Shown here: piece by piece, positions 1,232 through 21,096 of the stretch
Layout of the letters: each line of letters begins with the position of its first letter
How positions within the stretch are numbered: position 1 is the stretch's first letter
DNA from: Acidobacteriota bacterium
GTDB lineage: Bacteria; Acidobacteriota; Thermoanaerobaculia; Gp7-AA8
Reading direction: 5' to 3'
DNA length: 64,000 bases
Assembly: GCA_019244185.1 (NCBI GenBank)
Contig: JAFATB010000026.1
Coordinates: 96,001 to 160,000 of the forward strand
Notes under the pieces: generated by a model
What the model was told of the DNA's origin: nothing
Databases searched by the model: none
The model's input: the letters and a program-made list of their open reading frames with translations, nothing else
Made by a program: the position numbers and the translations under genes

Positions 1232-1488
1232 GCACCGTCCGCAAAGTCGCTCGCAGTGCCTCGTCCGGCCGGTTCATTTCCGCTCGCGACGCGCGCCGCT
1301 GGCCGCAATACACGGTCGTCGAGACGATCAGCTATCCGTCTCCTCGTCGTGTCGGCCGCCGGCGCTCCGCGCGTCACCTCACCGAGGAGAACCAGATGGA
1401 GCGGCCGTTCAAAGCCGGCAGAGACCTTCGCACCGGCGCGAAGAAAAAGCGCGCCACGTCCGAGTTCAAAGCCGGCAAAGACATCTGA
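1228..1488 (+). CDS. Small basic protein (RSAxxGRF N-terminal motif; two FKAG[KR]D[LI] motifs)
   Basis: ATGA-coupled to upstream ORF; possible internal start at 1396 with GAGGAG at 1384-1389. Confidence 0.6.
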   Translation: MSTVRKVARSASSGRFISARDARRWPQYTVVETISYPSPRRVGRRRSARHLTEENQMERPFKAGRDLRTGAKKKRATSEFKAGKDI

Positions 1489-1507
1489 CCCATTCACGCA
1501 GTTGACC

Positions 1508-1537
1508 GGTGGGGCGCGCGTTCGCGCGCGCTCCACC
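1508..1537 (+). other. 13-bp GC-rich stem with UUCG loop (RNA-stabilising or regulatory hairpin)
   Basis: GGTGGGGCGCGCG-TTCG-CGCGCGCTCCACC just upstream of the amidase RBS; no U-tract. Confidence 0.55.
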
Positions 1538-1553
1538 ACTTCGGAGGGCAATC

Positions 1554-2213
1554 ATGAACGTTCAGCAATACCCGCTCAAAAAGGGCCAATACTTCTCAGA
1601 CCTCACCGCCAAGAAATTCGTCGTCTGGCACGGCACGGCCGGCCGCACGCTGCACACGCCGGTCTCCGGCCGCCCCGGCAAAGCCACAACGTCGATCGAC
1701 GCGTGGAACCTCAACGCCGATCGCGTCGGCGCTCCGTGGCTCGTCGATCGCGACGGCTCGATCTACCAGACCTTCAACGACTCCGCGTGGATTTTCCATC
1801 TCGGGCTCAAGGGCGTGAAGGGGCTCTACGACAAGCAATCCGTCGCGATCGAGTTCGCGAACGAAGGGCCGCTCGACCTGGACGGCGACCGCCTCTACGC
1901 CTTCGGCATGAACACGCCGAACACCATCTACAACGGGCCGTTCATCAACCACGACTGGCGCGGCTTCAGCTACTTCGCGCAGATGGACGAGGCTCAAGTC
2001 GATGCCGGGATCGCGCTCACGCTCGACATCTGCCAGCGCCACAAGATCGAGCCGGTCTTCTACTACCCGTCAACCACATTCGACTTCCCGCGATGCTTCC
2101 AAGTCGCCACGATCATCTGCCACTCCAACTGCCGCGCCGACAAGACCGATCTCTGTCTGCCGCAATGGGTCTTCGAGAAGATCGAAGCGGCCGGCATTCG
2201 CATCGCCTCATGA
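1554..2213 (+). CDS. N-acetylmuramoyl-L-alanine amidase (Amidase_2/AmpD-like)
   Basis: VVWHGTAG, SVAIEFAN, QVDAGIAL..IC, IICHS..RADKTD motifs; RBS GGAGGG at 1543-1548. Confidence 0.85.
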   Translation: MNVQQYPLKKGQYFSDLTAKKFVVWHGTAGRTLHTPVSGRPGKATTSIDAWNLNADRVGAPWLVDRDGSIYQTFNDSAWIFHLGLKGVKGLYDKQSVAIEFANEGPLDLDGDRLYAFGMNTPNTIYNGPFINHDWRGFSYFAQMDEAQVDAGIALTLDICQRHKIEPVFYYPSTTFDFPRCFQVATIICHSNCRADKTDLCLPQWVFEKIEAAGIRIAS

Positions 2214-2225
2214 AGGAGTCGAACC

Positions 2226-2369
2226 ATGGACGAGATTCTTTGGTTACTCGACCAGGCGATGCGCGACCTTCAGGCGGCACGCCGCCGCGCTGGCAGCAAG
2301 AAGGTCCGCGCGCATCTGCGCCTCGCGATCGCGCGCATCAACCAAATCCATCACATGCTCACCACGTAA
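2226..2369 (+). CDS. Unannotated 47-aa helical protein (MDEILWLLDQAMRDLQAARRR...HHMLTT)
   Basis: GAAGGAG RBS at 2212-2218, ATG 2226, TAA 2367-2369; below the ORF-track length cutoff. Confidence 0.6.
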   Translation: MDEILWLLDQAMRDLQAARRRAGSKKVRAHLRLAIARINQIHHMLTT

Positions 2370-2374
2370 CGAAG

Positions 2375-2408
2375 AGGGGAGCCGCGCGGCCACTTCCCGC
2401 GGCCCCCT
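2375..2408. terminator. Putative terminator hairpin between convergent operons
   Basis: AGGGG(A)GCCGCG...CGCGGCCCCCT stem directly after the 47-aa ORF. Confidence 0.45.
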
Positions 2409-2527
2409 GCACCGCTAACGGTGGTCTCCCCGGTGGGCGATCACATGCCATACGACGATATTGGATGAGGCGTGAAACGGCACGCTGGTCGTCCGGGAAA
2501 CACCACGGTGACACCGGGGCACAGTGC

Positions 2528-4024
2528 TTAGCGCTTGCTATCTCGTTTTAGCAGCGCCCACAGGGACTCGCCTCGCCGGGTCAAACTTTGTTGATTATCA
2601 TGTAGTGCGACAAGGCCGGGTCCCAAACGTTGCAGTATCCTGCCGATGCCGTCCGGATTCTCTGCCCTCGCAATCTTAGACTTTAAGGAGCGTCGGGCCG
2701 CGCTCTCCCGGTGTCGACCAGCGCGAAGCGTGGCAACAGTTTGGTCGATGTTGTTGAGAAACGCCGTAATGTCGGAGTGATTTACAAGGTGAGCGTCGCA
2801 AATTAGTTTACCGAAGACGGCCGCACCATATGCATCGTCTCGCCGCGACGTCTCGTCGAACTTAAGCGGCTCGACCTGTGAGTTATCACGTGAGCGAGCT
2901 TTAGCACGGAGAAGACGAACACTTGACCTTGACGAAACGTTCAATATTGCGAATGGTCGTCCAAGCTCATGCGATGCTCTCATTACAGTCGCGAGCCCCT
3001 CAAGTGTGCGGCAGCCGGTGTATACAATCGGGGAGTAGATCTCGTCTAGAATTGGCGCAACAATCTTGGCTTCAACTATATCCTCACCGGCCATTTCAAA
3101 TAGTGCATCGGCCAGATCGAACATCGACGCGTAATCTGAGGCCGACTGTCCAAGAGCTGTGGCGGCCGCAGCTAGTGCCGTGCTTCCTTCGACGTGATAG
3201 AAGCCTCGATGTAGCGCGAGATAATGACCCAGAGACGTCTTGCCGGCGGCAGTACTTCCGATCACAACTAGAACAATATCGTTCGCGTCTTGCGGGAAAA
3301 TGGTCAACTGCGCAGGATTGCGTCGCGCTGACATTGAAGCATGCCGCGTGCTAGCTGCTGGCAGATTGAGGATCGAGGCATATTCCTCTAGCCGCTCGCT
3401 GAGCTGCTTCAAGCTATTCACACGGAAGTCGTACCGCAACGACTCCTCTAGCTCCAGAGCGGCGAGAACCGTCTTCGCGCCTTCCGGCACGAACCACGAG
3501 CTGAAATCCTGCCGCCCGAGCCATGGATATAATGGATTCTGCCGCACCTCGGGCACCGTATCCGCGACAACACCGCGCGTGGTACCTGAAAAGATAGGAA
3601 AGTCCGGAAATAGACCCGGAACGTATAGTGCGATGTCCGAGGAAACGGTGACACGCTTGTCGCCACCGGCGGCATTCAGTGCTGATAGTAGTTCGTCGTG
3701 TGTTGTTTCGGCGAACCACTCTTTTGTGGCCTGTCCTGGGTAGTCAGCCCCCCTTCCGAGTGCAGGAATGCTGACGGTCGTGTCTTCGATGAACACGATT
3801 CCTGTGGCACCCGCTCGCGATACGACCTCATCTAGACCTGCCTTAAGAAATGCTCGCTTAGGCAAACCGTATGGTTCGACATATGGCTCGCGGTGAGCTT
3901 CCAGCAGTTCAACGTCGAAGCCACTCGACTGGAGAATTAGTCGCGCTTGCAGGAATTTGGGTATATTCGATGTCGAGAACCGAATCGGAGCAAGGCGAAT
4001 CGCGCGACGGAGGTATCGGTTCAT
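2528..4024 (-). CDS. Ham1/ITPase-like non-canonical NTP pyrophosphatase fused to a P-loop nucleotide kinase-like domain
   Basis: N-half: TSNIPK, IEDT, YPG, FSGTTRG, FVPEG..VLAAL (Ham1 pattern; SHR replaced by DFR). C-half: VVIGSTAAGKTS Walker A. Confidence 0.82.
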   Translation of the reverse strand: MNRYLRRAIRLAPIRFSTSNIPKFLQARLILQSSGFDVELLEAHREPYVEPYGLPKRAFLKAGLDEVVSRAGATGIVFIEDTTVSIPALGRGADYPGQATKEWFAETTHDELLSALNAAGGDKRVTVSSDIALYVPGLFPDFPIFSGTTRGVVADTVPEVRQNPLYPWLGRQDFSSWFVPEGAKTVLAALELEESLRYDFRVNSLKQLSERLEEYASILNLPAASTRHASMSARRNPAQLTIFPQDANDIVLVVIGSTAAGKTSLGHYLALHRGFYHVEGSTALAAAATALGQSASDYASMFDLADALFEMAGEDIVEAKIVAPILDEIYSPIVYTGCRTLEGLATVMRASHELGRPFAILNVSSRSSVRLLRAKARSRDNSQVEPLKFDETSRRDDAYGAAVFGKLICDAHLVNHSDITAFLNNIDQTVATLRAGRHRESAARRSLKSKIARAENPDGIGRILQRLGPGLVALHDNQQSLTRRGESLWALLKRDSKR

Positions 4025-4998
4025 GCCGGCCCGTTATAGATTTCCAGCTCGTGACCGGCGTTTTGAAAGTCGTACGGCCCGCTGAGATCAATTCCACGCA
4101 ACACTTCGGTGATTCGCGCAAAAGAGCCACGCCCATGGACGGCAAAGACGGTTGGTCCTAGGCTACTTAACCCGGCGGGAATTCCGGCCTCCCACAGATG
4201 CTCGATTGCTACACGGACCGCCTGCGGCTGTGCTGCAATCTCACGGGCTTTGAACCCCTTAACCTGAAATCGGCGCAAGGACAGCCCGAATTGGTCGAGG
4301 TCAGTCTCAAGCAGCGCCGGAATCATTCCATGGAACACATCTGCAATTTGCTGCAGAGTATCGGTGTCGGCAGTGGGCGTATTCTTCTCAAAGAAGCTGC
4401 GCTCGCTGCCAGGGTTGACGGTTGGTGGGTCGTTGACGAAGGCTAGACTGACGTTCCAGTCGGTCGGCATCTCCCAGCGGCCGAGGAATAGGGATGGTGA
4501 CCGTCCTTCCGGCGCGATCGAAGGAAGGTACGACGTGGTTCGGCTACCGCCTGGCTGTCCGGCGTCTACTATCAATCCACCAAGGAAGAATCCGTTGCAC
4601 CCTATCGCAGATGTTCGTCCGCGCCCGCTCAGTCGGATCAGTTCCCGGCTGTCAATCGTCCAGCGATTTAAAACCGCCAGCGCCTTCATCACCGCGAGTG
4701 TCGTCGCTGTCGTTGAGCCGAGGCCTACGTGGCCGGGTGGTCGTTTCAACACAGTTACACTGCCTGACAGTGGGAGTCCGCTCGCGCGGGCGCGCAGCGC
4801 GGCGTCACCTACCTTCGTTTCCTCGTCGCCGTGACTTGGCCCAAGATCAAGCGCGAAGCTTGAGTCCGCTCGACCCTCGACACGTACTTCCGGCCCGCGA
4901 AAATGCGCGCCGATACCACCGTACGATCGGCCCGTCGCTCCAGCAAGATCTGTGAGCCCGAAATGAAGTCGCGGGTACGCGACCACCGATACCTTCAC
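4021..4998 (-). CDS. Beta-ribofuranosylaminobenzene 5'-phosphate (beta-RFAP) synthase-like C-glycoside synthase (GHMP fold)
   Basis: YPRLHFGLTDL..YGGIG, PGHVGLGSTT (GHMP motif), GRGRTSAIG...GGLIVDAGQ, GLSSLGPTV. Confidence 0.88.
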   Translation of the reverse strand: MKVSVVAYPRLHFGLTDLAGATGRSYGGIGAHFRGPEVRVEGRADSSFALDLGPSHGDEETKVGDAALRARASGLPLSGSVTVLKRPPGHVGLGSTTATTLAVMKALAVLNRWTIDSRELIRLSGRGRTSAIGCNGFFLGGLIVDAGQPGGSRTTSYLPSIAPEGRSPSLFLGRWEMPTDWNVSLAFVNDPPTVNPGSERSFFEKNTPTADTDTLQQIADVFHGMIPALLETDLDQFGLSLRRFQVKGFKAREIAAQPQAVRVAIEHLWEAGIPAGLSSLGPTVFAVHGRGSFARITEVLRGIDLSGPYDFQNAGHELEIYNGPA

Positions 4999-5771
4999 TT
5001 GTGGCTCCCGGGTGCACGAGAGAGCTTCTCGCTCGTAAATATCTCGTCAAAGTGATCGACCAACCGGTCGAACATATACCCGGGCCGCTTTACAATCATT
5101 GTCGGCAAGTTGCGACTGGCTCTTCCGAATCGAGACGAGGACACAAGGTACGGTCCCCAAAATGCCTCATCGTCAATGCGAAACATGTTCACACTGGGAA
5201 GTGTCGTAGCGAGCCGCAACTCGAAATTACTGTCACTCCGAGACCACAGGGGTTGCGTGTCAGTTATGAAGCGTAATACCTCGGCGCGCGTACGGCCCGA
5301 GGTATTCGATTCCTCCATGTCACGTATGTCCACATACCTGCTATTCGATCTCGGAGCGTCTGGATCTACCAACAAGATGCGTACACGTGCACGGGTGGCC
5401 CATTCTGAGAACTGGTCGAGGAAATCCTCTCGCAGTGCGTTTAAACCGAAGCCCATCACATCAATCGACTGCGAGGCTGCACGCAGTCTGCGCTGATACT
5501 CGTCTTTGATCTGGATCGAACGATGCGGGAATGCTGTCACAAAACCAAACGCGTCTAATACTCTTCGACGGTCGGCCTCGGCTTCGTCGAATACGACCCA
5601 ACCAAAGACGACCATGCCACCTACGCCTGTTGCAATCATCGACGTGCCGACAGCGACACCTACAGGCCCCATCGTGGCAATGAGAGCGCCCACCAGGACA
5701 AGAATCAACTGCAGCGCCATATACAGCAAGAACCGTGAGCTCTGCAGTCGTCTGGAAATCCCAACTTTCAT
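4995..5771 (-). CDS. Two-TM membrane protein with C-terminal DUF5919-like (PLD-like fold) domain
   Basis: Two hydrophobic N-terminal helices; IDVMG, VRILLVDP, FRIDDEAFWGPY, P..(F)DEIF pattern. Confidence 0.7.
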   Translation of the reverse strand: MKVGISRRLQSSRFLLYMALQLILVLVGALIATMGPVGVAVGTSMIATGVGGMVVFGWVVFDEAEADRRRVLDAFGFVTAFPHRSIQIKDEYQRRLRAASQSIDVMGFGLNALREDFLDQFSEWATRARVRILLVDPDAPRSNSRYVDIRDMEESNTSGRTRAEVLRFITDTQPLWSRSDSNFELRLATTLPSVNMFRIDDEAFWGPYLVSSSRFGRASRNLPTMIVKRPGYMFDRLVDHFDEIFTSEKLSRAPGSHK

Positions 5772-6763
5772 TCCGGGCTCTCCTCGCTGTGAGTAGTGCT
5801 GGTCATGATTCGATAGCCATCTGTCGTCGTGGTTATTGTCGAGTGAATGAAGCCCGCTCCGTTGAGCAACTCAGCCAACTCGCGATCGGTACGTTCTCTG
5901 CCTCCGAAGAGGATATGCATGTCGAGATCGCGAGAAGAATCAGCCAGATCACGGGGGTTCCAGCGTCGTTCGATGATGAGTAATTCAGAGCTGTGGTCTA
6001 GCGTTTGCCGGCATCGTCGGAGCAGGCCGAGGGCGTCTGCATCATCCAAATTGTGCAGAATGCTTCCAAGTATGTAGATTCCTGCGCCCGTCGGCATGCG
6101 GTCGCTAAAGTCGTCCTGAAGTACGTCGATACGTTCGCGTAGCTCGGGCGATGCCGTCCGCACTAGCCATCCTGCGTCTTCATAGCAATCGAAGACGACA
6201 CCCCGCCAGTCAGCGGGAAGCTGGCTGAGAAGGTCGATGGCGTAGTGACCTGGCCCACCCCCAATATCGGCGATCAGTCGGGCCATTTTTGGCCTTGGAT
6301 ATATCGCGAGTTCTTTGGTCCTGCGCCGGATCATGTGTTCATCGAAGGCTCGCGACAAGATGGGGTCGGACCGGATCTCGCTCCACGTTCGCAGAGCAGG
6401 TTCCGCAGGCGAGCCCCGAGTATCCAGTAGTATTTCGCCGAGTTCTCGACGCTTAAGGTAGAGGTACCTCGTGAGTGGGTCAGGCGATGTCCGATCCGAC
6501 TCCAATCGTGCACGAGCGATCGGGAGCAGCGCTACGATTTGCGGCTGCAGCTTGACGGGCCCGGGAGGAGGGGATTGCACCAACTGCAGGAGTTCGAGAT
6601 GCCGTAGGACAGCGAGTGAAAGTTGCTGCAAAGAGTGGTGCAGAGTGTTAGGCGAATTCAGACGGGTTACCACCTGGCCGTTTTCGAAAGCCAGAACAAC
6701 GTACGGCGCCAACGGATCAACCCGTATGGCACGAATCAACTCCTCAGCATTAACTAGAGTCAC
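5768..6763 (-). CDS. SAM-dependent O-methyltransferase (Methyltransf_2 type)
   Basis: ADIGGGPG motif I, ILHNLDD, LLIIE, DLDM...GGRERT. Confidence 0.88.
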   Translation of the reverse strand: MTLVNAEELIRAIRVDPLAPYVVLAFENGQVVTRLNSPNTLHHSLQQLSLAVLRHLELLQLVQSPPPGPVKLQPQIVALLPIARARLESDRTSPDPLTRYLYLKRRELGEILLDTRGSPAEPALRTWSEIRSDPILSRAFDEHMIRRRTKELAIYPRPKMARLIADIGGGPGHYAIDLLSQLPADWRGVVFDCYEDAGWLVRTASPELRERIDVLQDDFSDRMPTGAGIYILGSILHNLDDADALGLLRRCRQTLDHSSELLIIERRWNPRDLADSSRDLDMHILFGGRERTDRELAELLNGAGFIHSTITTTTDGYRIMTSTTHSEESPE

Positions 6764-6775
6764 GAGAGATCGCTG

Positions 6776-6967
6776 TTAGCTTCCGCGGATCTTCCGGAGC
6801 AACTCGCTCAAAGACTCGACTCCCTCGTCTCTGAGCACGTTTCCCAGTTGCTTATCGCTTCTGACGCCAAGATCCACGTGGTACATCTCCTCGATCGTCC
6901 CGGCCTGTGTGTCGCTTCGCTTCCGCCGGAGCGTCCCTTCGTCGGTGCGGCCGCGCTCGCCGCTCAT
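6776..6967 (-). CDS. Small conserved-looking hypothetical protein (63 aa; RKRSDT...GVRSD..LG...SLSELL)
   Basis: Ends 12 nt before the methyltransferase start; the pattern resembles a small bacterial hypothetical family (recalled, not searched). Confidence 0.55.
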   Translation of the reverse strand: MSGERGRTDEGTLRRKRSDTQAGTIEEMYHVDLGVRSDKQLGNVLRDEGVESLSELLRKIRGS

Positions 6968-7085
6968 GCTCGGATCGTCGTTGCGAACAGATGGCGCTTT
7001 TCGGTGTGACATCTGATTTCCCCTTGAAATTGATGTGTCGGCCACGAGGTGCGAAAGCTGTTCGATTCGATTCACTTCGGGCCGC

Positions 7086-7119
7086 TTGACATCATGCCAT
7101 CCGTCATGGAGAATGTCAA
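7086..7119 (+). promoter_or_regulatory. Sigma70-type promoter with overlapping inverted-repeat operator
   Basis: TTGACA(7086)-N17-GAGAAT(7109); TTGACAT...ATGTCAA inverted repeat, plausible autoregulatory site for the downstream Xre antitoxin. Confidence 0.55.
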
Positions 7120-7162
7120 CGTTCACGTCAATGTGATGATGAACGCGCGAAAGGATCTCCTA

Positions 7163-8428
7163 ATGGATATGCCGCTCACGCCTCGCCTCATCCATGCTGT
7201 TCCGCCGCAACTCGGCACCTATCTTCGGCCGAACCGCGTTGATCACAAAGCGCTGCTGGCGTTCATCGCCGAAGGCACTCCGGCCGGTCTCGAAGGCATC
7301 GTTTTCGACCCGACGCTCGACTCGATCCATACCGAGCTCCGCGACGAGGCTCGAGAGCGGAAGATCGAAGCGGTTCTCGATACGCGTGCGATGGAGCTCG
7401 CGCTCGAGGGCGGATACGTCGGCTCGCGATGCGCGCTGCCGTGGGCAGGTGAGGAGATGCACCGAACGGACAGCCTTCGCGGCGAAGCTGGCCGTGACTG
7501 CGCGAAACGGATCACCGACTGGATGGCGCCGCGCCGCTACTGCAGCGTCCTCGCGCCCACGCACTACCTCGCGGCCGGCGCCGCCGATCCCTGGTTCGCA
7601 GTCGACCGCGACTTGACGATCGCGCTGCGCGCCGCGCTCGATGCCGCCGGCCTCGCTGCCGTCCCCATTTACTATCCGCTCGCGATCAAAGGCGAGGCGT
7701 TTTTCGATGCTCGTCAGCGCGAGCAGTTCCGGCTCGCCCTCACTTCACTTCCGGTCGATGCAATCTGGCTCCGTGTTCAGCCGTTCGGCTCGCGAAGCGG
7801 CGGCAACGTCGTTCGCAAATACATCCGCGCCTGCGCCGATCTCCATTCGTCGGCTCTGCCGCTCGTCGCGGAGAAGTCCGGCACAACCGGCCTCGCGCTC
7901 CTCGCGTTCGGCGCTGTCGGCGGCATCGAAAGCGGCATCACGATCGGTGAGCACTTCGACGCCAACAGTTTGATCTCGCGTCGCGAAGGCGGCAAACCGT
8001 TCACGCCTCAAGCGCGCGTCTACATCACCGCTTTGCAGACGTTCATGTCGAAGCAACAGGCGCGGCCTTTCTTCGATAACCGCACGTTGCGCACCTATTT
8101 CGCCTGCAAGGATCGCTGCTGCCCGCGCGGCTCCGACGACATGATCATGTATCCGAAGCGCCACTTCCTCCTCCGCCGCACCGCCGAGATCAGCCGGCTG
8201 AGCGCTTTGCCGGAAACTGTACGCGCGTCGCGCTACATGGAAGAGATTCTCCGCCCCGCCACTGACCAGATGGCGAAAGCCGTTAAAGCAGCGGAACATC
8301 TGGAAACGACACGTCAGCGCCTCGACATGCTGCGCAGTGTGCTCGGCGCGATCCTCGAAGACTCACAGCCGGTCAGCTTCTCGGCTGTGCCGGAGGGCAA
8401 ACGAATTCAGACACGGCGCGGCGCCTAA
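7163..8428 (+). CDS. Putative TIM-barrel protein (beta-protein/Sce7725/TGT-like) with C-terminal Cys/His cluster
   Basis: AAGGA RBS before ATG 7163; alternating beta/alpha pattern; CKDRCC...RH resembles the zinc site of TGT-like barrels; lies upstream of a RES toxin. Confidence 0.55.
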   Translation: MDMPLTPRLIHAVPPQLGTYLRPNRVDHKALLAFIAEGTPAGLEGIVFDPTLDSIHTELRDEARERKIEAVLDTRAMELALEGGYVGSRCALPWAGEEMHRTDSLRGEAGRDCAKRITDWMAPRRYCSVLAPTHYLAAGAADPWFAVDRDLTIALRAALDAAGLAAVPIYYPLAIKGEAFFDARQREQFRLALTSLPVDAIWLRVQPFGSRSGGNVVRKYIRACADLHSSALPLVAEKSGTTGLALLAFGAVGGIESGITIGEHFDANSLISRREGGKPFTPQARVYITALQTFMSKQQARPFFDNRTLRTYFACKDRCCPRGSDDMIMYPKRHFLLRRTAEISRLSALPETVRASRYMEEILRPATDQMAKAVKAAEHLETTRQRLDMLRSVLGAILEDSQPVSFSAVPEGKRIQTRRGA

Positions 8429-8469
8429 CCATCTATCCAAAATCTGTGAAACGGAAAGGTTGTGTAACC

Positions 8470-8808
8470 ATGGCTTCAGCACTTGCAGAACGCCTCGACA
8501 AAATCAAAGAACTCGGGGGGATCACCGGGCGCGACGTCGCGCAACTGCTGGACACAACGCCTGAAACGGTCTCGCGTTGGAGTACGGGCAAGATTGATCC
8601 ACAACGCGAGAGGCTACAGCGCCTTCTCGAACTCGAATTTTTTCTGACGGAACTCTCGGAATTCTACTCGCCAGAGGAAGCGAAGCTCTGGTTGTTCAGT
8701 CCCCACAAATCGCTCGGCGGTGAAACGGCGGCGGCGCGCATTCAGGCCGGCCGAACGCAAGACGTGTTTACGCTTCTCGATCAGCTTCGTTCCGGTGCCT
8801 ACATCTAG
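8470..8808 (+). CDS. Xre/MbcA/ParS-type antitoxin
   Basis: N-terminal HTH (DVAQLLDTTPETVSRW); C-terminal AKLWLFSPHKSLGGETA...GAYI. Confidence 0.9.
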   Translation: MASALAERLDKIKELGGITGRDVAQLLDTTPETVSRWSTGKIDPQRERLQRLLELEFFLTELSEFYSPEEAKLWLFSPHKSLGGETAAARIQAGRTQDVFTLLDQLRSGAYI

Positions 8809-9327
8809 ATGATCTATCCGCCGGACATGTTGGACATCTTGCAATCCGCACGGGCGTCGGCATGGTCCGGCACCGTGTACCGCCACATGTTCGGCTCGTA
8901 CCCGCCGGCCCGTAGCAACACGACCGGCGCTCGCTGGAACGATACGAACCTCGAAGCCATTTACACGAGTTGCGAGCGAGAAACCGCGTTGGCGGAAGCC
9001 GAGTACCACATCGCGATGCAGCCACTTCGACCGCGCGCGAAGCGAACGCTGTACACCATTAACGTATCGCTCAAAAACGTTCTTGACCTCACCGTACCCG
9101 GCCTGCTCGATCAACTCGGGATCACTGCCGACGTTCTCTCCAGCACCGATCACACTCCATGCCGCACGGTCGGCGGTGCCGTGAACTGGCTCGGCCACGA
9201 TGGCCTGCTAGTGCCGTCCGCGCGGCGCATCGCCGGTACAAACCTAGTGATCTTCCAGCAGGATCTCTCAACGACCGAGTTTGAAGTCACAGCCGAAGAG
9301 GTAGTCGCTGAAGACGCTCGGCTGTAG
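8809..9327 (+). CDS. RES-domain toxin (NAD+-targeting)
   Basis: VYR, GARWN, IYTS, ALAE, DGLLVPSAR, NLVIF; abuts the antitoxin stop codon. Confidence 0.92.
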   Translation: MIYPPDMLDILQSARASAWSGTVYRHMFGSYPPARSNTTGARWNDTNLEAIYTSCERETALAEAEYHIAMQPLRPRAKRTLYTINVSLKNVLDLTVPGLLDQLGITADVLSSTDHTPCRTVGGAVNWLGHDGLLVPSARRIAGTNLVIFQQDLSTTEFEVTAEEVVAEDARL

Positions 9328-10102: not shown

Positions 10103-10219
10103 TGCGATTGTGGGTTTGCGCATGTCGTGCGTGCTATCGAGCGCCTCGCCCGAGCTATCATCGGAAAGCGATCGCGCGTAGCATCACAGCGGACTCCACC
10201 GCCCGCGCCTCAGGCAGCC

Positions 10220-11032
10220 ATGTTTCGAGCTTTTTTTGATGAATCTGAAGTCGATCCTGTCTACCTGGTAGCCGGCTGGGTGGCATCCGCGGAAGAGTGG
10301 ACTAAATTCGATATCGCGTGGAATGCAGCGCTAGCGGCCGATTCCTCCATCCGATACTTCAGTCATCATGATGCGAAGATGTTGAAGGGCGAGTTTGAAG
10401 GGTGGTCGAACGAAGACACTCAGACGAAGCTCGATGCGCTCGTGAAGGTGATTTGCGATCACGAGATGTACGGCGTTACGACCGGCCTCAACACGACGAC
10501 GTGGAGGCAGGCATTCCATTCAGAGCTCAGTCGTAAGCGGTTAAAGGGCATTCTTAAATTTACGCACCACTACCAGTCATGTTTTCACAGCGCTGTCGCG
10601 ATGGTGATGCAACGGCAGCTAGAGTTGGGCCACACGTCTGACGTCGTTGATCTGGTGTTCGATCAGCAAGACGGCCTCTTGAAAGACAGCATCAAGCATT
10701 ACTCGAGCTTTAAAAGCTCATTTCCTCCCGCAGTGCAAAAAATCGCAGGCGAGATTTCGGTCGGGAACGACAAGAACACCCCTGCTCTCCAAGCCGCCGA
10801 TCTTCTGGCCGGCCAGTTAACGACGATGTTGAAGTCTGGACCGGGCCCGACGTATAAAACGATCGTGAAGTGTCATCAGGTGATACACGCGAAAGCCTAT
10901 CCTCCCCAATTCCAGACGTTCCCCGCGATCATCAAAGCGGTCAGTTGGGCATGGACCGAGAAGCGCACGCTAGATGCACAGATTGCCGCGGAGGACGAGC
11001 ATTCACCCGACAAGAAGAGGAACGACAAGTAG
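10220..11032 (+). CDS. DUF3800 (RNase H-like fold) protein
   Basis: AFFDES, YLVAGW, LVFD, PALQAADLLAG signature. Confidence 0.82.
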   Translation: MFRAFFDESEVDPVYLVAGWVASAEEWTKFDIAWNAALAADSSIRYFSHHDAKMLKGEFEGWSNEDTQTKLDALVKVICDHEMYGVTTGLNTTTWRQAFHSELSRKRLKGILKFTHHYQSCFHSAVAMVMQRQLELGHTSDVVDLVFDQQDGLLKDSIKHYSSFKSSFPPAVQKIAGEISVGNDKNTPALQAADLLAGQLTTMLKSGPGPTYKTIVKCHQVIHAKAYPPQFQTFPAIIKAVSWAWTEKRTLDAQIAAEDEHSPDKKRNDK

Positions 11033-11623
11033 CGTCGTGGTTGCATTCGCACCCGTGGACCAGCCTCTAGGGGAGCCCCACATCACTTATAAGCGACCCG
11101 GCCGCAAAATCGGCTGCGGCGGGCTCGAAAACGGCTACCGTGAGCTCCAAAACACTCCCCGGAGCATCATTTAGGCCTTCCGCGGCATCACCGCGAAGTG
11201 CCCCGCGGCCGAAAAATCGTGCCCGGCATCACCCGCGAGTCCCCGGAGCCGATTTTTACGACCCCGGGGCCCGTTTAGCGATCACCGAGCATCGCCGCGA
11301 CGCCACCACCGCCCACTTAAAAGCGATCCGACATCGATGGCGCGCGAAGCCCGATCTCTGCCATTCATGTCGTCCCGGCTCGAAACCACACCCCATCGCT
11401 TTAATCCGACTCGCGCGCACATCACGCCGGCAACGCGCCGGATCACGCCGACGACGCCGCAAGCGATTACGACGGCCGCTCACTTCATGCAGAGTCCCGC
11501 GCAACGCGAAATCATCGTGCGCGAACGCAAAACCATCGCGCATGACTTCCACGCGATCCGCGATCGATTTCCGATGCCCGGCAATCGAATAGCGCTCGCG
11601 CGACTCCGCCCACCCACGCCGCG

Positions 11624-12193
11624 GCGTCACGCCTCTTGCACGCTCGTACCGCGATGAAGCGGCCGTACTTCGCCCGCAACGGTCGCGCCGCCGCGGCTCC
11701 CGCCCCCGCGAGTGGCACGTTCTGCGCGGATGCCACACCCGCCCGCCCTCGCGTCACGCCCGTTGCATGCTCGGACCGCCATGAAGCCGCCGTACTCGCG
11801 GCAACGGTCGCGCCGCTTTCCCCCGCGCGAGTGGCACGCGCATCGCGGACCGCCCGCCGGCCCGCCCGCCCTCGCCGCGACACGTCCGTTGCCTGCCGCC
11901 AGCTGCGGTTAACGTTCGTGCATCGCGTGCAACCGACGTGTCGCGGCTCCCGCCCGCGCAGATGCCATCTGTTGCGCGATCTGCTCCGGTCCCTGCCGCG
12001 CCGCGTCACGTCCGTTGCCGGCCACCAGCTGCGATTACCGTTCGTTCAGCGCGTGTAACCGACGTGACGCGGCTCCCACCCCGCGAGTGGCGCGTGCATC
12101 GCGACCGCCACCCTCCCGCCCTCGCGCGTCACGCCCGTTGCACGCTCGCGGCTCGCTATCGCTCGCCGCCTCGCGCCGCAACGGTCGCGCCAC
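11624..12193. repeat. Tandem array of five ~126-bp units, each with an inverted pair GCGTCAC-N5-TTGC ... GCAA-N5-G(C/T)G(C/T/A)C
   Basis: Unit starts at 11624, 11751, 11877, 12003, 12126; 34-36-nt inner spacers. Confidence 0.85.
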
Positions 12194-12267
12194 GCTCCCG
12201 CCCCCGCACGTGGGGGAGTTCGTCGCCGAGGATCACCGGAACGCCGCCGCCCTTCACCTCTTTTGCC

Positions 12268-12851
12268 TCACGTCCCGCGACGATGAAACAGGTCCGCCGG
12301 CCCTTTCTTCTGCGAGTACTCCGCATGCTTCACCTTGAACCACTCTGTTGTCATCGCGTACGGGTCAGCGCCACGTCTCGCGACGATCCCCTCGAGGTCC
12401 ATCTTCGTGACTGCGTCAATCAACCGGGGATCGTCGGTAGCCTCGACGGTTTGCACCTGGCCGCTTCTCACAACTTTCTCGAGCTCGTGTTTTCGCCGAC
12501 GCAGCGGCAGCGCTCGAAGGTCACTTCCGTTCAACCACAACACATCGAACGCCACATAACTCGCCGGCTTTCGGTCATCATCAGCGAGGAGAAGTCCGGC
12601 CGCCCTTCTCTCATGACCACAATCTCGCCATCGAGGATTACATCGCGGGCGGGGAGCTCCCGCGCGATCGCGTTCGCCAGCGCATCGAAACGTCTCATCG
12701 GCTTCTTCGTCTTCGACAAGAACCGCCCGCGCTCATCCTCGACATACAACGTTCCGCGGAACCCATCCAGCTTCAACTTATATAGCCAATCACGTCCGCG
12801 AGGGACATCACGAACGAGCTTTGGCAGAATGGGATCGGTCTGCGGCAGCAC
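12268..12851 (-). pseudogene. Frameshifted ATP-dependent DNA ligase adenylation domain (LigD/LigC-like)
   Basis: KLDGFR, LDGEIV in one frame; YVAFDVL, LEGIVAR, WFKVK in the next; 1-nt shift near 12574. Confidence 0.8.
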
Positions 12852-12930
12852 GCGATTACACCCCGATCACTTTTAAGGCACCGGCTATCACTGATGCTTG
12901 TCCCATAGTCACTATCCCCGCGCTGCCTAC

Positions 12931-13302
12931 TGTGCTTTTTTTGTTCCGTCCACAGCCCACCCATCACGCAACTGCTCGTTGCATGGCGGTGTGCCGCGCG
13001 ACGTCGCCCGCTGCGTGCTAACACCTCAGCGGCGTCGCGCGCATCGTACCGAGTTTCGTTTGCGTATCCGCACGCTCTACACGCGGTAGCACGCGCCCCC
13101 TCGCCGCGTCACCGCTTTGCAGAGCGGGTTGTACAAACAGGCGCGGCCCATCCGCAAAAGCGGCGCCGCGGCTGCACGCCCGCCCTCGTCGTTCGGTTCA
13201 CTCGCTCATTCACGTTCGCTTCCCCTCCCATGCGCGGTCACGCCGTTTGCAGCGGGTGTTTCTATCGCGGCTGCACCTCCATCGCGGGCAAACGTCGCGC
13301 CC
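12931..13302. repeat. Diverged direct repeat copy 1 (two paired-box units)
   Basis: TGTGCTTTTTTTGTTCCGTCCACAGCCCACCCATCACGCAAC and units at 13106 and 13235 match 14866-15185. Confidence 0.75.
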
Positions 13303-14365
13303 GCGCCCCGGGGAACCTCAAAGGAATGACATTGCTTTGCCGCCCGCCGCCCGGTCCCGCGAGCTCGCCACGCCCGCGTCCGAGGATCCTCGCGAAGGCC
13401 CGCGGCGCGTCACGCCGTTTGCAGTCGCGCGCGAAAAGGAATGCGTCAGTGCGCGCAGCAAACGGCGCGCCACGCCGCTCCTGCATCGCCTGTTGGTTCG
13501 CGCATCCCGGCATCACGTTTCCGCCCGTTCCCGTGGCTCGAGCGCGCGTCGCCTGTGGCTGCGCCTAAGGCCGCCGCTGAAGCTGTCGTGGCCCGCTTCT
13601 CCGTGGCTTCGCGCGTTTCCACGCGCTCGGTTTTCGCAAGCAGGGTAGGGCACTGCTGCGAATCACTTTCAAGCGGTCCACGCAGCTTAGCGGAGCCTTA
13701 GGCGCGAACGGTTTGTCGCGGCCGCACGTTTCCACCGCCCAACCCTTCGGCTTCACGTGCAGCGTCGCCGCGATACCGCGTCGCGGCTGCACGTTTCCCC
13801 CTCGCCGCGGACGCTGCGCCAGGCAGCGCGCCCACCACACACCCTCCCGCGCGGCTGCCGCGGCGCAGCTCGCGGGCCGCATGCGGCGCTGTCGCTGCCG
13901 CAAGCGTCCCGCGCCGCGGCTCCCACCCGGCGCCGCGCCCTGCTCGCTGGGCCGGGCGGCTAATCGCCGCCCCGGCCCAGCATTGCAGGGTTTCCCATTC
14001 GGCGGCTGCGCTCTTGCGACTTCTTCGTCTTTGCGCAGCAGCCTCGCGGTTGCAACAGCGGCATGCCCGGAACGCCCCGCGCTTCGCGCGTTGCGTTCCT
14101 CGTCGTCGATCGCAACCGCATCGGCGCGGCACGCTCCGCCACCCTCGCCGCGCCGCGTGCGCTCGCCTTCGGCTCGCGCACCGCCGCTCCGCGCGACTGC
14201 GGCCGCCCACCGCCCGCGCCCCCTGCCGCCGCAGTCGTGCTCCGCGGCCCGGCGCTTCCACCCTCCCGCCGCGGAACCCAATTACCGTCCGCACCCCCTC
14301 ACATCCGCGGACGGCAATTCGGTTCCGCGGCCCCCGGCGCCGGCGGCGCGGCTCCCGCCCCGGAG

Positions 14366-14650
14366 CTACGCCACCCGCCCATCCTCCGGTGAGACATCGA
14401 CCCACGAGATGCTCCCGCTTCGATGCTCGATGCGTTTCTTCCCGAGGACGTGATGGCCTGCGATCAACTCGCACGTCTTGCCACCGAACAGGCGCGTCTT
14501 CGCTCCGCACGTTCCGATCCGATCGCGCAGTTGCTCCATCTTTCGTCGCGCCGCGTCTTCGCTGAGGGCTGTTTCGTCGAGGTCCGGCCGGCCGTCGATG
14601 TAGCCGTGCCATTTCGATCCGACCTTCTTCGTCGTGATTTCCGCATTCAT
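14366..14650 (-). CDS. Hypothetical 94-aa protein
   Basis: Protein-like composition, unlike neighbouring Arg/Ala-rich shadow ORFs; Cys/His residues in C-half. Confidence 0.55.
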   Translation of the reverse strand: MNAEITTKKVGSKWHGYIDGRPDLDETALSEDAARRKMEQLRDRIGTCGAKTRLFGGKTCELIAGHHVLGKKRIEHRSGSISWVDVSPEDGRVA

Positions 14651-14865
14651 CGTCGAAAAGCCTGTGGATAAATGGAGCGCGAGGTCAACGATCGCGCGTT
14701 CTGCCGCGGTGTGGAGCGCAATGCACAGCCACTTGTTCTACCGCGAGTGGACGCGCGCGGAGGTGTCGGTCACGTCGAAGGCGCGATCATCGCGCGGGGA
14801 GTGAGGCCGCGGCTCCGCTGATGCGTGACTTGCGCTCGAAGCACATTCGTCGTGAGTGGTTCGCT

Positions 14866-15185
14866 TGTGTTTTTTTGTTTCGCCCACGGCCCGCCCATCA
14901 CGCAACCATTCGTGCCATCGGGCGCGCACCGCAACCCTGCTCGCCTCGGCGCGATCCACCAGGTGTAGATCGCGCGCCCCCTCGTGGCGTCACCGTTTTT
15001 GCAGAACGGTCGGATGAAACCGGCGCGGCCCAGCCGCAAAACCGGCGCCGCCACTTCCCACCCTCCCATCGCCTGTGGGTTCGCATCTCTCGGTCGCACG
15101 TTTCCCCCGCCCATGCGCCGTCACGTCGCTTGCAGCGGGTGTCCGTATCGTGCACGCGCATCTCTCGCGGGCAAGCGCCGCGCCG
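14866..15185. repeat. Diverged direct repeat copy 2 (two paired-box units)
   Basis: TGTGTTTTTTTGTTTCGCCCACGGCCCGCCCATCACGCAAC and units at 14987 and 15118. Confidence 0.75.
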
Positions 15186-15271
15186 GCGCCCCCCCACAAA
15201 AATGTCCTATCGCGGCGCGCACATCGCACGGCGGGGTAGGGAAAACCGCGCTCGAATCACTCCTTAAATAA

Positions 15272-15286
15272 CGACAGATTCTGTCG
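15272..15286. promoter_or_regulatory. Palindromic operator-like site
   Basis: CGACAGA-T-TCTGTCG just upstream of the peptide-gene RBS. Confidence 0.35.
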
Positions 15287-15302
15287 AGGAAAAGAGGGCA
15301 AT

Positions 15303-15407
15303 ATGGGAATCAGTGAGACGCACGAGCTTGAGTTTTCCGAGTTCCCGGATTTCGATCAATGGTTTGTCACCGAGTACGTCCCCCTGGCCGGGGGTTGGCA
15401 ATATTGA
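15303..15407 (+). CDS. Unannotated 34-aa putative precursor peptide MGISETHELEFSEFPDFDQWFVTEYVPLAGGWQY
   Basis: GAGGA and GAGGG Shine-Dalgarno-like sites at 15286-15298; ATG 15303; TGA 15405-15407 abuts the next ATG (15408). Confidence 0.72.
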   Translation: MGISETHELEFSEFPDFDQWFVTEYVPLAGGWQY

Positions 15408-16250
15408 ATGGCGTCGTCCCGCCTCTCGGTCGAGGGGCCGGCGTTTGCACAAGCTGTCAAACATGCTACGAAGCTCGTTGACAAACTCGAGATCAACAAT
15501 TGGGACTTCGCCCTCGCACCGGAGCTGTACGCGAAACAATCACGCGCCGACGTTCTGGCGAAGGAGTTGGTGTTCGTCCACGACGGGAGGCAGCAGACGA
15601 TCTACGGTCGCCTCGTGACCGGCGGCTTTGGTGAAACCTTCAACCTAATGGGGCCCATTCACGCCAACGCCGAGTTCCGCCTCCGTGAGACCGACATCTT
15701 TGATCAGGTCCACCGCCACACCGGGACGAAGGGACTTTCCGATCTCGAAGAGTTCCGAGCGCTACCGCCGGCGCAACCCGTCCACCTTTACAACTACACG
15801 TATTTTTTCACGCTGCGCGACCTCATCTTCTGGCACGCGCTGCACAATTCCGGCTCCTATCCCAGCACGTTGGAGCATATGGCTCGCAATTTCCCGATGG
15901 GGAAGGTGATCCAGAACAGCATGTACTCGCCACCGAAGCCATCGTCCGATGATTCGAACCCGGCGATCATGACCTTCGACCGTCTCACCGTGACCTTTCC
16001 GACTCCGCACGTCGAGTGGATGGAGCAGCCGCTGTTCGGGGGGCTGGTGAAAGAGACGATTCAAGTGGAATACCTCGTTACTCCCGATCGAAGCACTGCG
16101 ACGCATCCTTACTTGCCTCTCGTCAACGAGTCCGCGATGGAATGGAAAGGCTCAAAGTGGAACGTTCGTGTTTTCTCCGGCGTCACGCCGAAGGACGCAC
16201 AGGTGGGCCCGGGATATCTGCCCGAGGGAGGAAAGCGAGCTGATTCATGA
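15408..16250 (+). CDS. Hypothetical 280-aa protein (possible peptide-modifying enzyme)
   Basis: Coding-like; coupled to both neighbours; several His (HRH, WHALH); no family recognised. Confidence 0.75.
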   Translation: MASSRLSVEGPAFAQAVKHATKLVDKLEINNWDFALAPELYAKQSRADVLAKELVFVHDGRQQTIYGRLVTGGFGETFNLMGPIHANAEFRLRETDIFDQVHRHTGTKGLSDLEEFRALPPAQPVHLYNYTYFFTLRDLIFWHALHNSGSYPSTLEHMARNFPMGKVIQNSMYSPPKPSSDDSNPAIMTFDRLTVTFPTPHVEWMEQPLFGGLVKETIQVEYLVTPDRSTATHPYLPLVNESAMEWKGSKWNVRVFSGVTPKDAQVGPGYLPEGGKRADS

Positions 16251-17776: not shown

Positions 17777-18213
17777 TGTCGCTTCTGATACATGAGCAGG
17801 TTGTACGCGAGATGATTGCCGATTCACGCTCGCTCGAACCCCGCGAAGCCGTTGGCCTGCTGGCGGCGCCCACGCCGGGTTCGCCGGTCACTCGGTGTTT
17901 TCCGCTGCCGAACATTGCAACTGAGGATCACCTGTACTGGGCTGACCCCTTTGCGCAATGGCAGGCATTTCGTAGCATCTTTCAGGAACGTCTTCGGCCG
18001 GTCGCTGTCTATCACTCCCACCCTGGAGGCGGCACTGAGCTGTCTGCTCGCGACATTGCGTTTGCGCGGGAACTGGGCCTCCTGCAGGTGGTGATCGCCT
18101 TGGGAGATCGCGTCGAAAGGCTAGCTGCACATGCAGTCGATCCCGACGGTTCCGCACGACCAGTCGAAATATCGATGGTGATCTCAACACTAAATCCTAC
18201 CGTCACGTCATAG
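17773..18213 (+). CDS. JAB/MPN+ (M67) metalloisopeptidase
   Basis: EAVGLL plus YHSHP-x5-LSARD JAMM motif; ATGA overlap. Confidence 0.9.
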   Translation: MMSLLIHEQVVREMIADSRSLEPREAVGLLAAPTPGSPVTRCFPLPNIATEDHLYWADPFAQWQAFRSIFQERLRPVAVYHSHPGGGTELSARDIAFARELGLLQVVIALGDRVERLAAHAVDPDGSARPVEISMVISTLNPTVTS

Positions 18214-19048: not shown

Positions 19049-19074
19049 GATTCTCAATGATGATAGCACTTGAT

Positions 19075-19110
19075 TTCTCAGAAGTGAGAACTTATAATTT
19101 CCCCTTGACA
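19075..19110. promoter_or_regulatory. Divergent promoter/operator region between XRE regulator and integrase
   Basis: TTCTCA-GAAG-TGAGAA palindrome at 19075-19090; TTGACA at 19105. Confidence 0.45.
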
Positions 19111-19203
19111 GGTGATCGATGGTCGAGCGCATTTCAGGAAGAATCGGAACGAAGCGTCGCTCAGTCACTTTCACCCCTGCCGCGCCGAGTAAGGGGAGGC
19201 TGC

Positions 19204-20577: not shown

Positions 20578-20596
20578 CGCGCGTCGGGAACATGCC

Positions 20597-20869
20597 ATGC
20601 CGAAACGTCGAGCGCGATTCCCTCACCGCTACACGATGGGGCGCCTTACGCGCGACGGGAAGCGCGTGCCGTTAGTGCGCGTCTCCGGTCGTTGGCTCGA
20701 AGCGTTCGGCTTTAAAGAGGGCGCGAAGTACACCGCGATCGGCGTCGAGGGCGGGCTACTCGTCCTCACCGTCTACGAAGCCGCGCCAGGCGGCGGCACG
20801 TCGCGGCCTGAGACCTCGCGCGCGCTCGATGCGCAGAATGATGCACTTCCGCCCCGCAACCGCACGTGA
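20597..20869 (+). CDS. SymE-family (AbrB-fold) type I toxin-like protein
   Basis: VPLVRVSGRWLEAFGFKEG...LLVL signature. Confidence 0.75.
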   Translation: MPKRRARFPHRYTMGRLTRDGKRVPLVRVSGRWLEAFGFKEGAKYTAIGVEGGLLVLTVYEAAPGGGTSRPETSRALDAQNDALPPRNRT

Positions 20870-21072
20870 CCTTCTCGCGCCAGTAATCGCGCTCCGATCC
20901 GCGCCATGCTAACCCGCCGCACCGCACACCCTCGCCCCGGTCGCGCCCCCGCTCTGCGCTCGCTTTCAAGTGTCGTCGCGGCGCATTTTTTCCGTGGAAC
21001 ACTCACGCCGAATGCGCAACATTTCGCATTTCTGGTCGCGGGTCAGCGCAAATTTTCGCTCGTGAAAATCAC

Positions 21073-21096
21073 GACCTTGCGAGTGACTTTGCGAGT
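21073..21096. repeat. Tandem 12-bp direct repeat, candidate integrase arm-type sites
   Basis: GACCTTGCGAGT-GACTTTGCGAGT about 70 bp from the tRNA 3' end. Confidence 0.5.

Follow-up and report, generated by a model that had tools for sequence, protein, structure and literature searches.

A mobile gene trio with a beta-RFAP-synthase-like enzyme, a Ham1-kinase fusion and a phospholipase D-fold effector: a candidate nucleotide-signalling defence system

Why would a bacterium encode a membrane protein, an enzyme of the beta-RFAP-synthase family and a Ham1-kinase fusion in one tightly packed operon? This question is raised by the feature at positions 2528-6967 of a 64,000-nt stretch of DNA from an Acidobacteriota bacterium (assembly GCA_019244185.1, contig JAFATB010000026.1, positions 96,001-160,000), hereafter the window. 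An earlier interpretation made from the letters alone, hereafter the sequence-only reading, had seen in it a candidate for a new modified-nucleotide system. Three of the genes prove to form an obligate, horizontally mobile trio, and we put at about 0.55 the probability that this trio is an undescribed abortive-infection (anti-phage or anti-mobile-element) signalling system, which would use as its messenger a non-canonical nucleotide derived from phosphoribosyl pyrophosphate (PRPP).

A four-gene operon of atypical composition

The open reading frame (ORF) list places four genes on the minus strand. P0001 (5768-6763, 331 aa) is an accessory small-molecule (phenol-type) O-methyltransferase (O-MTase) that occupies the first, variable position of the operon. 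P0002 (4995-5771, 258 aa) is a putative effector composed of a two-transmembrane (2TM) hairpin (residues ~3-75) and a C-terminal domain (C-domain, residues ~68-258) with a phospholipase D (PLD) fold lacking the HKD site. P0003 (4021-4998, 325 aa) is a GHMP-fold enzyme of the beta-RFAP-synthase/ForT family and a putative PRPP-dependent synthase, and P0004 (2528-4024, 498 aa) is a fusion of a Ham1/ITPase-like domain, a P-loop nucleoside monophosphate (NMP) kinase and a winged-helix-like tail. The gene identities given by the sequence-only reading were borne out by family scans (Methyltransf_2 for P0001, TIGR00144 for P0003, Ham1p_like for P0004) and by two long N-terminal helices in the model of P0002, and so were the 4-nt overlaps, which read ATGA (5771-5768), GTGA (4998-4995) and ATGA (4024-4021) on the minus strand. 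The operon is indeed less GC-biased than its host: its GC content is 54-62%, versus 62-72% in the surroundings, and the GC content at third codon positions (GC3) is 0.55-0.61, versus 0.83-0.86 in two adjacent host-like ORFs.

The effector, synthase and fusion genes form an obligate trio

The sequence-only reading had proposed to ask whether these genes co-occur elsewhere, and they do. The Ham1-kinase fusion is rare, with 28 clusters in a 5.8-billion-protein collection. An alignment of 24 such fusions retrieved 27 loci from one-genome-per-species contigs, spanning at least six phyla (Actinomycetota, Chloroflexota, Myxococcota, Acidobacteriota, Pseudomonadota with its Alpha-, Gamma- and 'Delta'-proteobacteria, and Verrucomicrobiota). 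By tblastn, 23 of these loci have P0002-like, P0003-like and P0004-like genes in this order on one strand; two of the exceptions (L026 and L028) have the effector gene downstream, on the opposite strand, and the remaining two (L024 and L029) are truncated at contig ends. When 388 ORFs of the 27 loci were clustered all against all, only the three trio genes proved to be widely shared (26, 26 and 24 loci), the flanks being unrelated.

An independent set of 80 metagenome loci was fetched with the P0002 C-domain alone. A synthase homologue follows the sensor gene in 62/64 loci where 500 bp or more are available (all but L092 and L108), and a Ham1-kinase homologue follows in 45/48 loci with 1700 bp or more (all but L058, L071 and L102). 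P0002, P0003 and P0004 are thus an obligate trio, and it is horizontally mobile. Only 2/24 other genomes of the genus carry it, at 30-34% identity for the synthase and the Ham1-kinase, and at E<=1e-20 the fusion is absent from all 400 other genomes sampled across the phylum. The nearest copies are found in Actinomycetota records (41-48% Ham1-kinase identity), with the nearest operon relatives in Pseudonocardiaceae, and one metagenome protein reaches 93%. The tree interleaves host phyla and separates a 4-member clade, which includes the window, from a 20-member clade; two Rhizobium plasmids and two Cupriavidus replicons also carry the trio.

One IMG/VR contig (L114), only putatively viral, carries the trio as well; none of the 10 flanking ORFs scanned on it showed a phage hallmark. 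A NUDIX-domain protein, a Vut_1 (YhhQ-type) transporter and a phosphoribosyltransferase are encoded there at 13315-15902, 4-6 kb from the trio. Two of the metagenome misses represent cassette decay: in L058 an insertion of ~2.5 kb (1458-3975) splits the synthase gene, and in L108 a deletion fuses the sensor gene, at its end, to the middle of the Ham1-kinase gene.

The effector joins a non-catalytic PLD-fold domain to interchangeable modules

The AlphaFold (AF2) model of P0002 (pLDDT 87) consists of two helices, residues 3-31 and 36-75, followed by an alpha/beta domain. Foldseek assigns this C-domain to the PLD fold, the best match being the C-domain of TrmBL2 (1.7e-7), followed by vaccinia F13, PLD3 and Nuc. 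Conservation was assessed here and below over 24 homologues of the trio proteins. No His or Lys is invariant in P0002, and the HxK(x)4D motif is missing; a catalytic PLD enzyme is rejected because this HKD motif is absent. The invariant positions are, instead, four arginines (R84, R131, R198 and R220), three acidic residues (D104, D116 and E154) and an FxGPY motif. The domain thus resembles the TrmB-family C-domain and other PLD folds devoid of HKD residues, but differs from the TrmB-family domain in being joined to killing-type modules, membrane or enzymatic, instead of a helix-turn-helix (HTH) domain, and in its lack of Pfam membership. The best Pfam match of P0002 is DUF7931 (0.065); DUF5919 is missing from the matches listed at E<=0.1. 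The 'DUF5919-like' label of the sequence-only reading stands only as a weak lead, namely a precomputed match on 2 of 120 listed relatives and on 15% of the members of one Atlas cluster. At E<=1e-10 and within a near length range the family comprises 160 clusters, and the source names of the 120 relatives listed are all 'hypothetical protein' or blank.

The N-terminal part of the effector is exchangeable. Twenty longer proteins carry the same C-domain: in 19 of them Pfam identifies an alpha/beta-hydrolase N-domain (DUF676/PGAP1/Abhydrolase_6), and in one, P0042, a SEFIR/TIR_2 domain. In a metagenome locus (L051) the N-domain is a Guanylate_cyc domain (8.8e-8), and the stop codon of the gene overlaps the start of the synthase gene. 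Hydrolase forms still adjoin the synthase and Ham1-kinase genes (L026, L028 and L031-L033), and the remaining effectors of the metagenome set are 2TM forms. One conserved non-catalytic domain, interchangeable membrane, lipase-like, TIR or cyclase modules and dedicated enzymes make up the architecture of a signal-activated effector, within which the PLD-like C-domain is taken to be the ligand sensor, as its fold and conserved residues suggest. The earlier idea of a signal synthase paired with a transmembrane effector gains strong support from these fusions of the sensor domain to hydrolase, SEFIR/TIR and cyclase-like domains.

The synthase retains the PRPP-binding and catalytic residues of ForT

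P0003 scores 154.1 bits against TIGR00144 (beta_RFAP_syn), above the cut-off of 113.5 (153.4 bits in the genome search), and 164.6 bits against the RFAP-synthase equivalog NF040726, below its cut-off of 328. Its nearest solved relative is ForT (6yqq, 6e-16), from formycin biosynthesis. According to two reports on ForT, PRPP binding strictly requires R19, T106 and R135, with the pyrophosphate held by the H99-S104 turn (PMC8183095); E211 serves as the indispensable general base, the leaving carboxylate is bound by the S174 loop and the retained one by S21 and Q266, K263 being nearby (PMC9832568). When mapped through the ForT alignment, R19, H99, R135 and E211 correspond to R10, H90, R126 and E199 of P0003, all invariant, and the H99-S104 turn corresponds to H90-S95. 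T106 corresponds to T97, which is at least 90% conserved, and S139, S174 and K263 correspond to S130, S160 and K250, each either invariant or at least 90% conserved. P0003 therefore shares with ForT and beta-RFAP synthase the TIGR00144 membership, the PRPP residues, the Glu acting as general base and the Ser in the loop that gates the carboxylate. It differs from them in a context that is neither methanopterin- nor formycin-type, and in the acceptor pocket, where S21 and Q266 are replaced by H12 and E253, both invariant in the trio homologues. Because the ForT residues are kept while S21 and Q266 are swapped, P0003 is probably an active PRPP-dependent decarboxylating ribosyl transferase with an acceptor other than that of ForT; this acceptor probably has no second carboxylate and carries an amino or hydroxyl group instead.

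The sequence-only reading had also pointed out that no other methanopterin genes are present. The whole genome (98.9% complete) agrees with this: it has a single TIGR00144 gene and gives 0 hits for each of the methanopterin enzymes Mch (PF02289) and Ftr (PF01913), for which methanogen controls were positive. A methanopterin role of P0003 is rejected on these grounds.

The Ham1-kinase fusion appears to be catalytically competent

P0004 matches Pfam Ham1p_like (PF01725) at 1.4e-7, with 32 bits versus a cut-off of 22.5, and has a weak additional match to AAA_33; against the RdgB equivalog it reaches 20 bits, short of the 145 required. Its AF2 model (pLDDT 85.9, pTM 0.86) is composed of a Ham1 domain (residues ~12-220), a disordered linker (229-247), an adenylate-kinase-related kinase (~250-435) and a tail (~442-492) modelled over residues 442-492 as a winged-helix-like helix-helix-hairpin-helix arrangement. 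In Foldseek comparisons, the fusion matches the archaeal NTPases PH1917 and Mj0226 with TM scores of 0.84-0.89 and KomB (8zsg_E) with 0.88, and its kinase matches the AMP-bound adenylate-kinase-related protein SSO1041 (3lw7) with 0.82. A profile search returned the SSO1041/AdkA-like 3lw7 at 2.7e-21 and PH1917 at 4e-9; the profile was needed, as a single-sequence PDB search with the Ham1 part gave chance antibody matches only. The kinase thus resembles SSO1041/UPF0200 in its profile match, fold, P-loop and lid arginines, but is distinct in sitting between a Ham1 domain and a winged-helix tail.

The TsNxxK, YxE and ieDT (EDT) motifs of the P0004 family align with TSNPGK, YPE and EDSG of PH1917 and Mj0226, and the base-recognition motif SHR reads DFR, a change that fits a non-purine base. 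T18, K23, E50, D81, T82, R201 and the Walker A residues G256 and G261-K262-T263 are invariant, as are four arginines, including those of the kinase lid. Homologues of clade B possess a full winged-helix tail. Because the catalytic Asp D81 is kept, P0004 more likely works as an active pyrophosphatase, with an NMP kinase coupled to it, than as a sensor of the KomB type.

Two other explanations can be weighed here. The first is housekeeping, i.e. synthesis of a methanopterin-type cofactor or ordinary sanitation of inosine and xanthosine triphosphates (ITP/XTP), as the database names 'beta-RFAP synthase family' and 'non-canonical purine NTP pyrophosphatase' would have it. It is very improbable: both equivalog cut-offs are missed, Mch and Ftr are absent from the genome, the trio is sporadic within the genus and the sampled phylum, and its GC3 is atypical. 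The second is an antiviral nucleotide-analogue factory, in which a non-canonical nucleoside triphosphate (NTP) made by the synthase and kinase would poison phage polymerases while Ham1 guards the host pool, the membrane, hydrolase or TIR protein being a separate or secondary module. Products of prokaryotic viperins are such polymerase poisons. Conserved catalytic residues would suit the making and sanitising of an unusual NTP, the Ham1 catalytic Asp is kept, unlike in the sensor-type KomB, and a nucleoside diphosphate kinase (Ndk) gene adjoins the trio in one locus (L009). This explanation would nevertheless leave unexplained both the obligate link to a non-catalytic PLD-fold domain (62/64 loci) and the interchangeable killing-type N-domains on the sensor, and we consider it unlikely; it is not exclusive of nucleotide signalling, and both can hold.

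The first operon position is variable

The METHYLTRANSFERASE slot, i.e. the gene position first in the operon and upstream of the effector, varies in content. P0001 matches Methyltransf_2 (PF00891) at 8.4e-18 (64.9 bits versus 22.3) and has 72 relatives in the PDB, of which the best is 3i53 (5e-21); Plu4895, CalO6, MmcR and DnrK, natural-product aromatic O-MTases, are among them. Its homologues upstream of the trio are limited to the closest relatives of the operon (L006, L007, L039, L040, L063 and L082). Elsewhere, a D12 Dam-like methylase directly precedes the effector (L016, L022, L025 and the two Rhizobium plasmids, where PGAP names it 'DNA adenine methylase'), or an N6_N4 (L013 and L030) or C5 (L009) methylase is found upstream, and the methylase stop and effector start overlap by 4 nt in L013, L022, L112 and L115. 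Dam-like or N6_N4 genes lie directly downstream in L011, L012, L014, L015, L018 and L020. Altogether, a methylase is adjacent to the trio in 15 of the 28 genomic loci (the 27 and the window), and at least nine complete loci have none from the families testable. Methylase homologues occur on at least 31 of the 80 metagenome contigs (25 D12, 2 N6_N4 and 4 O-MTase), counts that are lower bounds, obtained by tblastn with 11 query methylases on a set containing redundant contigs (L052/54/56/57, L035/36, L047/48 and L039/40). The methylated nucleotide proposed earlier is narrowed by this comparison: the methyltransferase is not part of the core, D12, N6_N4 and C5 DNA methylases taking its place elsewhere, and a 'methylated aryl nucleotide' is at most a feature of the subclade, or has to be explained otherwise. 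The slot enzyme may act on the messenger, at an exocyclic amino or hydroxyl group, or it may mark self DNA.

The O-MTase of the window invites a comparison with secondary metabolism, in which a C-nucleoside cassette would comprise a ForT-like synthase, a tailoring O-MTase and a kinase, with Ham1 providing self-resistance and the membrane protein export or anchoring. ForT is the closest solved relative of P0003, P0001 resembles the tailoring O-MTases of antibiotic pathways, and the nearest operon relatives belong to the Pseudonocardiaceae. Such a cassette is, however, quite improbable, given that no further biosynthetic genes are conserved around the trio, which spans at least six phyla with unrelated flanks, that the 'membrane protein' is swapped for TIR, lipase-like and cyclase-like fusions of the same domain, and that the O-MTase is missing from most loci.

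The DNA methylases, in turn, suggest a modification-linked restriction or guard system, in which the methylase would mark self DNA or be itself guarded, the effector would kill and the RFAP-like enzyme would be auxiliary; its sensor would be the winged-helix Ham1-kinase, detecting unmodified DNA, released methylated nucleotides or inhibition of the methylase. The frequency of methylases beside the trio, their 4-nt overlaps with the effector gene, the predominance of D12 on the metagenome contigs, the full winged-helix tail of the clade B proteins and pairs of a Dam and a DGQHR protein adjoining the trio in seven loci all argue for it. Yet the clade of the window has a small-molecule aromatic O-MTase in the slot, at least nine complete loci lack an adjacent methylase of the testable families, and a strictly conserved, catalytically intact PRPP-using enzyme would be left without a role; the guard reading is unlikely.

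The paired genes consist of a Dam gene next to one for a ~780-aa protein near the trio in L084, L059, L066, L089, L094, L099 and L108. In L084 (1974-5112) the Dam-like methylase overlaps the ~780-aa protein, which has plasmid homologues under the annotation 'DGQHR domain-containing protein'. Together the two may represent a modification-dependent module in its own right.

A candidate signalling system and its relation to known defence systems

The genes and their synteny, the exchange of domains, the conserved residues, the patchiness of the distribution and the neighbourhood were observed directly; from these genes we infer every biochemical step and the defence phenotype, including the aryl C-nucleotide chemistry, phosphorylation and Ham1 control put forward by the sequence-only reading. 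In the favoured abortive-infection scheme, the P0003-type enzyme would join PRPP to a carboxylated aromatic or hetero-aromatic acceptor, yielding a non-canonical ribonucleoside 5'-monophosphate; this step is suggested because the PRPP-binding and catalytic residues are conserved. The adenylate-kinase-like domain would phosphorylate the nucleotide and host Ndk would complete the triphosphate, which the Ham1 domain could hydrolyse back to the monophosphate as a built-in threshold or off-switch. Binding of the nucleotide to the arginine-rich, HKD-less PLD-fold domain would then activate the killing module at the N terminus, which is a 2TM hairpin in P0002 and an alpha/beta-hydrolase, SEFIR/TIR or cyclase-like domain elsewhere. 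As a guess, infection might be sensed by the winged-helix tail, or through a shifted kinase/pyrophosphatase balance, and the variable methyltransferase would modify the exocyclic group of the messenger or mark self DNA. The scheme in full, with an aryl (C-)ribonucleotide messenger made de novo instead of from a standard NTP, a kinase/Ham1 'toggle', an HKD-less PLD readout to membrane, lipase, TIR or cyclase effectors, and a methyltransferase slot (O-, N6/N4- or C5-type) that tunes the exocyclic group or couples the system to DNA self-marking, is tentative and less probable than the general reading.

Several points weigh against this reading. Messenger, trigger and phenotype are predictions made from the genes, and ligand binding by the PLD-like domain is likewise deduced from fold and conservation. 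A kinase and a pyrophosphatase fused for the same nucleotide look futile unless regulated. Frequent, translationally coupled DNA methylases are unexplained by pure small-molecule signalling, and the natural-product-type O-MTase and ForT-like enzyme also fit secondary metabolism. The SEFIR/TIR form is represented by a single protein, P0042. No homologue of P0002, P0003 or P0004 was found in 50,697 phage records, where there is no sign of phage counter-measures. PADLOC (PADLOC-DB v2.0, E<=0.1) matched 0 of the 5 operon proteins, a result that agrees with the novelty which the sequence-only reading proposed to check in this way, and 0 of the 10 island neighbours in the window. Several flanks are housekeeping genes (ALAD, an amino-acid permease, CtaG and ABC transporters), and the neighbourhood gene counts are raw counts.

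CBASS, Pycsar and Thoeris link a small-molecule synthase to an effector that has a ligand sensor and interchangeable killing modules (TM, lipase-like or TIR). The trio shares with them its operon logic, patchy mobile distribution and effector swapping, but lacks a CD-NTase, a Pycsar cyclase, a ThsB TIR synthase and SAVED, CARF, SLOG and CNB domains; its synthase and sensor belong to other families, and the kinase/pyrophosphatase fusion is an extra component. A closer comparison is with Kongming (KomABC), which has three genes, a dITP messenger, a HAM1-fold protein and a required nucleotide kinase step; the defensive HAM1s are reported there to carry His for the catalytic Asp, not to hydrolyse dITP and always to occur with SIR2 (KomC), usually along with the adenosine deaminase KomA (10.1101/2024.12.20.629578). 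Three genes, a HAM1-fold protein with a TM score of 0.88 between KomB and the Ham1 domain, a nucleotide kinase step and a non-canonical nucleotide triphosphate as messenger, the last two presumed here, are common to both. The trio differs in having no adenosine deaminase or SIR2, in keeping the catalytic Asp where the described KomB clade has His, in a kinase that is host-encoded and fused to Ham1, in a messenger presumably built from PRPP by a GHMP-fold enzyme, and in its presumed sensor, a PLD-fold domain here and HAM1 in Kongming. The analogy drawn earlier is thus a loose one, in which the Ham1 fold is shared and the residue at the catalytic Asp position is not; membership in Kongming is rejected on the invariance of D81 and the absence of SIR2 and deaminase genes among the conserved neighbours.

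A full-text literature search returned no description of the trio; supplementary files, which lie outside such a search, could list such systems. The terms for this system are absent from the main text of a modularity-network preprint (10.1101/2025.09.30.679545). If the signalling reading is right, a PRPP-derived, probably C-linked aryl nucleotide would be a new chemical class of immune messenger, and both the GHMP-fold synthase family and the HKD-less PLD sensor fold would be new to bacterial signalling immunity. The beta-RFAP-synthase/ForT family would gain a third role beyond the methanopterin and C-nucleoside antibiotic pathways, and the kinase-pyrophosphatase fusion would provide an inbuilt set point, in contrast to Kongming, whose HAM1 sensor is catalytically dead. 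Enzymes that form C-nucleotides could, like their products, also be useful for nucleoside-analogue biocatalysis. With three to four genes and clear catalytic residues, the system is small enough to be tested directly.

Genes flanking the trio in other genomes

Type I restriction-modification genes flank the trio in L010 (HsdR/HsdS/YgjP) and L028 (HsdR), Cas3 stands immediately behind it in L005, and a DUF499 gene is among the neighbours in L026; integrases, a serine recombinase and ISL3 or IS5-like transposases represent mobile elements. The flank tally is coarse: it covered 125 of 250 flank ORFs, and the PADLOC tally was swamped by redundant methyltransferase models. Individual scans were made of 20 chosen neighbours, 6 representatives of recurrent clusters, 10 ORFs of L114 and 20 ORFs of the window. 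In the Saccharothrix locus L005 (9441-11831), the Cas3 frame (HD plus helicase) continues from the Ham1-kinase ORF, as called here, with no stop in between, reflecting a fusion or else the tight packing of a high-GC genome. In the Nostocoides locus L009 (9569-10075), the Ndk gene is convergent and directly follows the Ham1-kinase gene; it could complete the triphosphate or be a coincidence.

Surroundings of the operon in the window

A 63-aa ORF on the minus strand (6776-6967), the inner ATG of a 116-aa GTG ORF, lies upstream of the operon. It was seen earlier as a leader gene; the ORF is real and coding-like (GC3 0.78), but it has no Pfam, NCBIfam or PADLOC match and no counterpart 5' of the methyltransferase in the six related loci examined, and is not supported as a component. 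Farther upstream, a consensus scan places a promoter-like site, TTGACA-17-CATGAT with TG, at 7091-7119 on the minus strand; the scan of the region gave 3 sites versus 2.4 expected, i.e. chance level. An Rfam scan of 2000-9000 gave just two sub-threshold chance matches and no riboswitch or leader RNA. A 459-aa ORF divergent from the operon (7049-8428) has a coding-like GC3 of 0.76, with no Pfam or PADLOC match and no homologue in any fetched locus. On the other side, a 431-aa ORF (1256-2551) shows a non-coding pattern (codon-position GC 0.76/0.63/0.50), and the overlapping ORF 1509-2213 (GC3 0.86) is likelier to be the gene.

The toxin-antitoxin module reported beside the operon was recovered as an Xre/MbcA/ParS-type antitoxin gene (8446-8808) and a RES-domain toxin gene (8809-9327) with adjacent stop and start; together with a DUF3800 gene (10127-11032), this pair lies within the same low-GC block as the operon. 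The tRNA island of the sequence-only reading fared less well. The closest tRNA, tRNA-Asp (21168-21244), is 14 kb off the operon, and a 506-aa ORF beside it, in the 19057-21244 region, has a sub-threshold Phage_integrase match (4e-4, 20.5 bits versus a cut-off of 27.1). The two may anchor an island of ~19 kb ending at the operon; no tRNA-derived, att-type direct repeat bounds it, the search returning just GC-rich dispersed repeats at 11.5-15.2 kb. This segment (11500-15200, up to 73% GC) abounds in direct repeats of families D1-D9, both dispersed and spaced at ~125 nt, and its long ORFs, which have no Pfam matches, are probably non-coding repeat elements. It is followed at 15408-18213 by three co-directional ORFs of 280 aa, 509 aa (with a 4-nt overlap) and 164 aa. 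The two larger ORFs have no Pfam match and the cluster has no PADLOC match; the smallest carries a Prok-JAB domain (1.3e-13), and the cluster may be a ubiquitin-like or Cap2/Cap3-like conjugation module.

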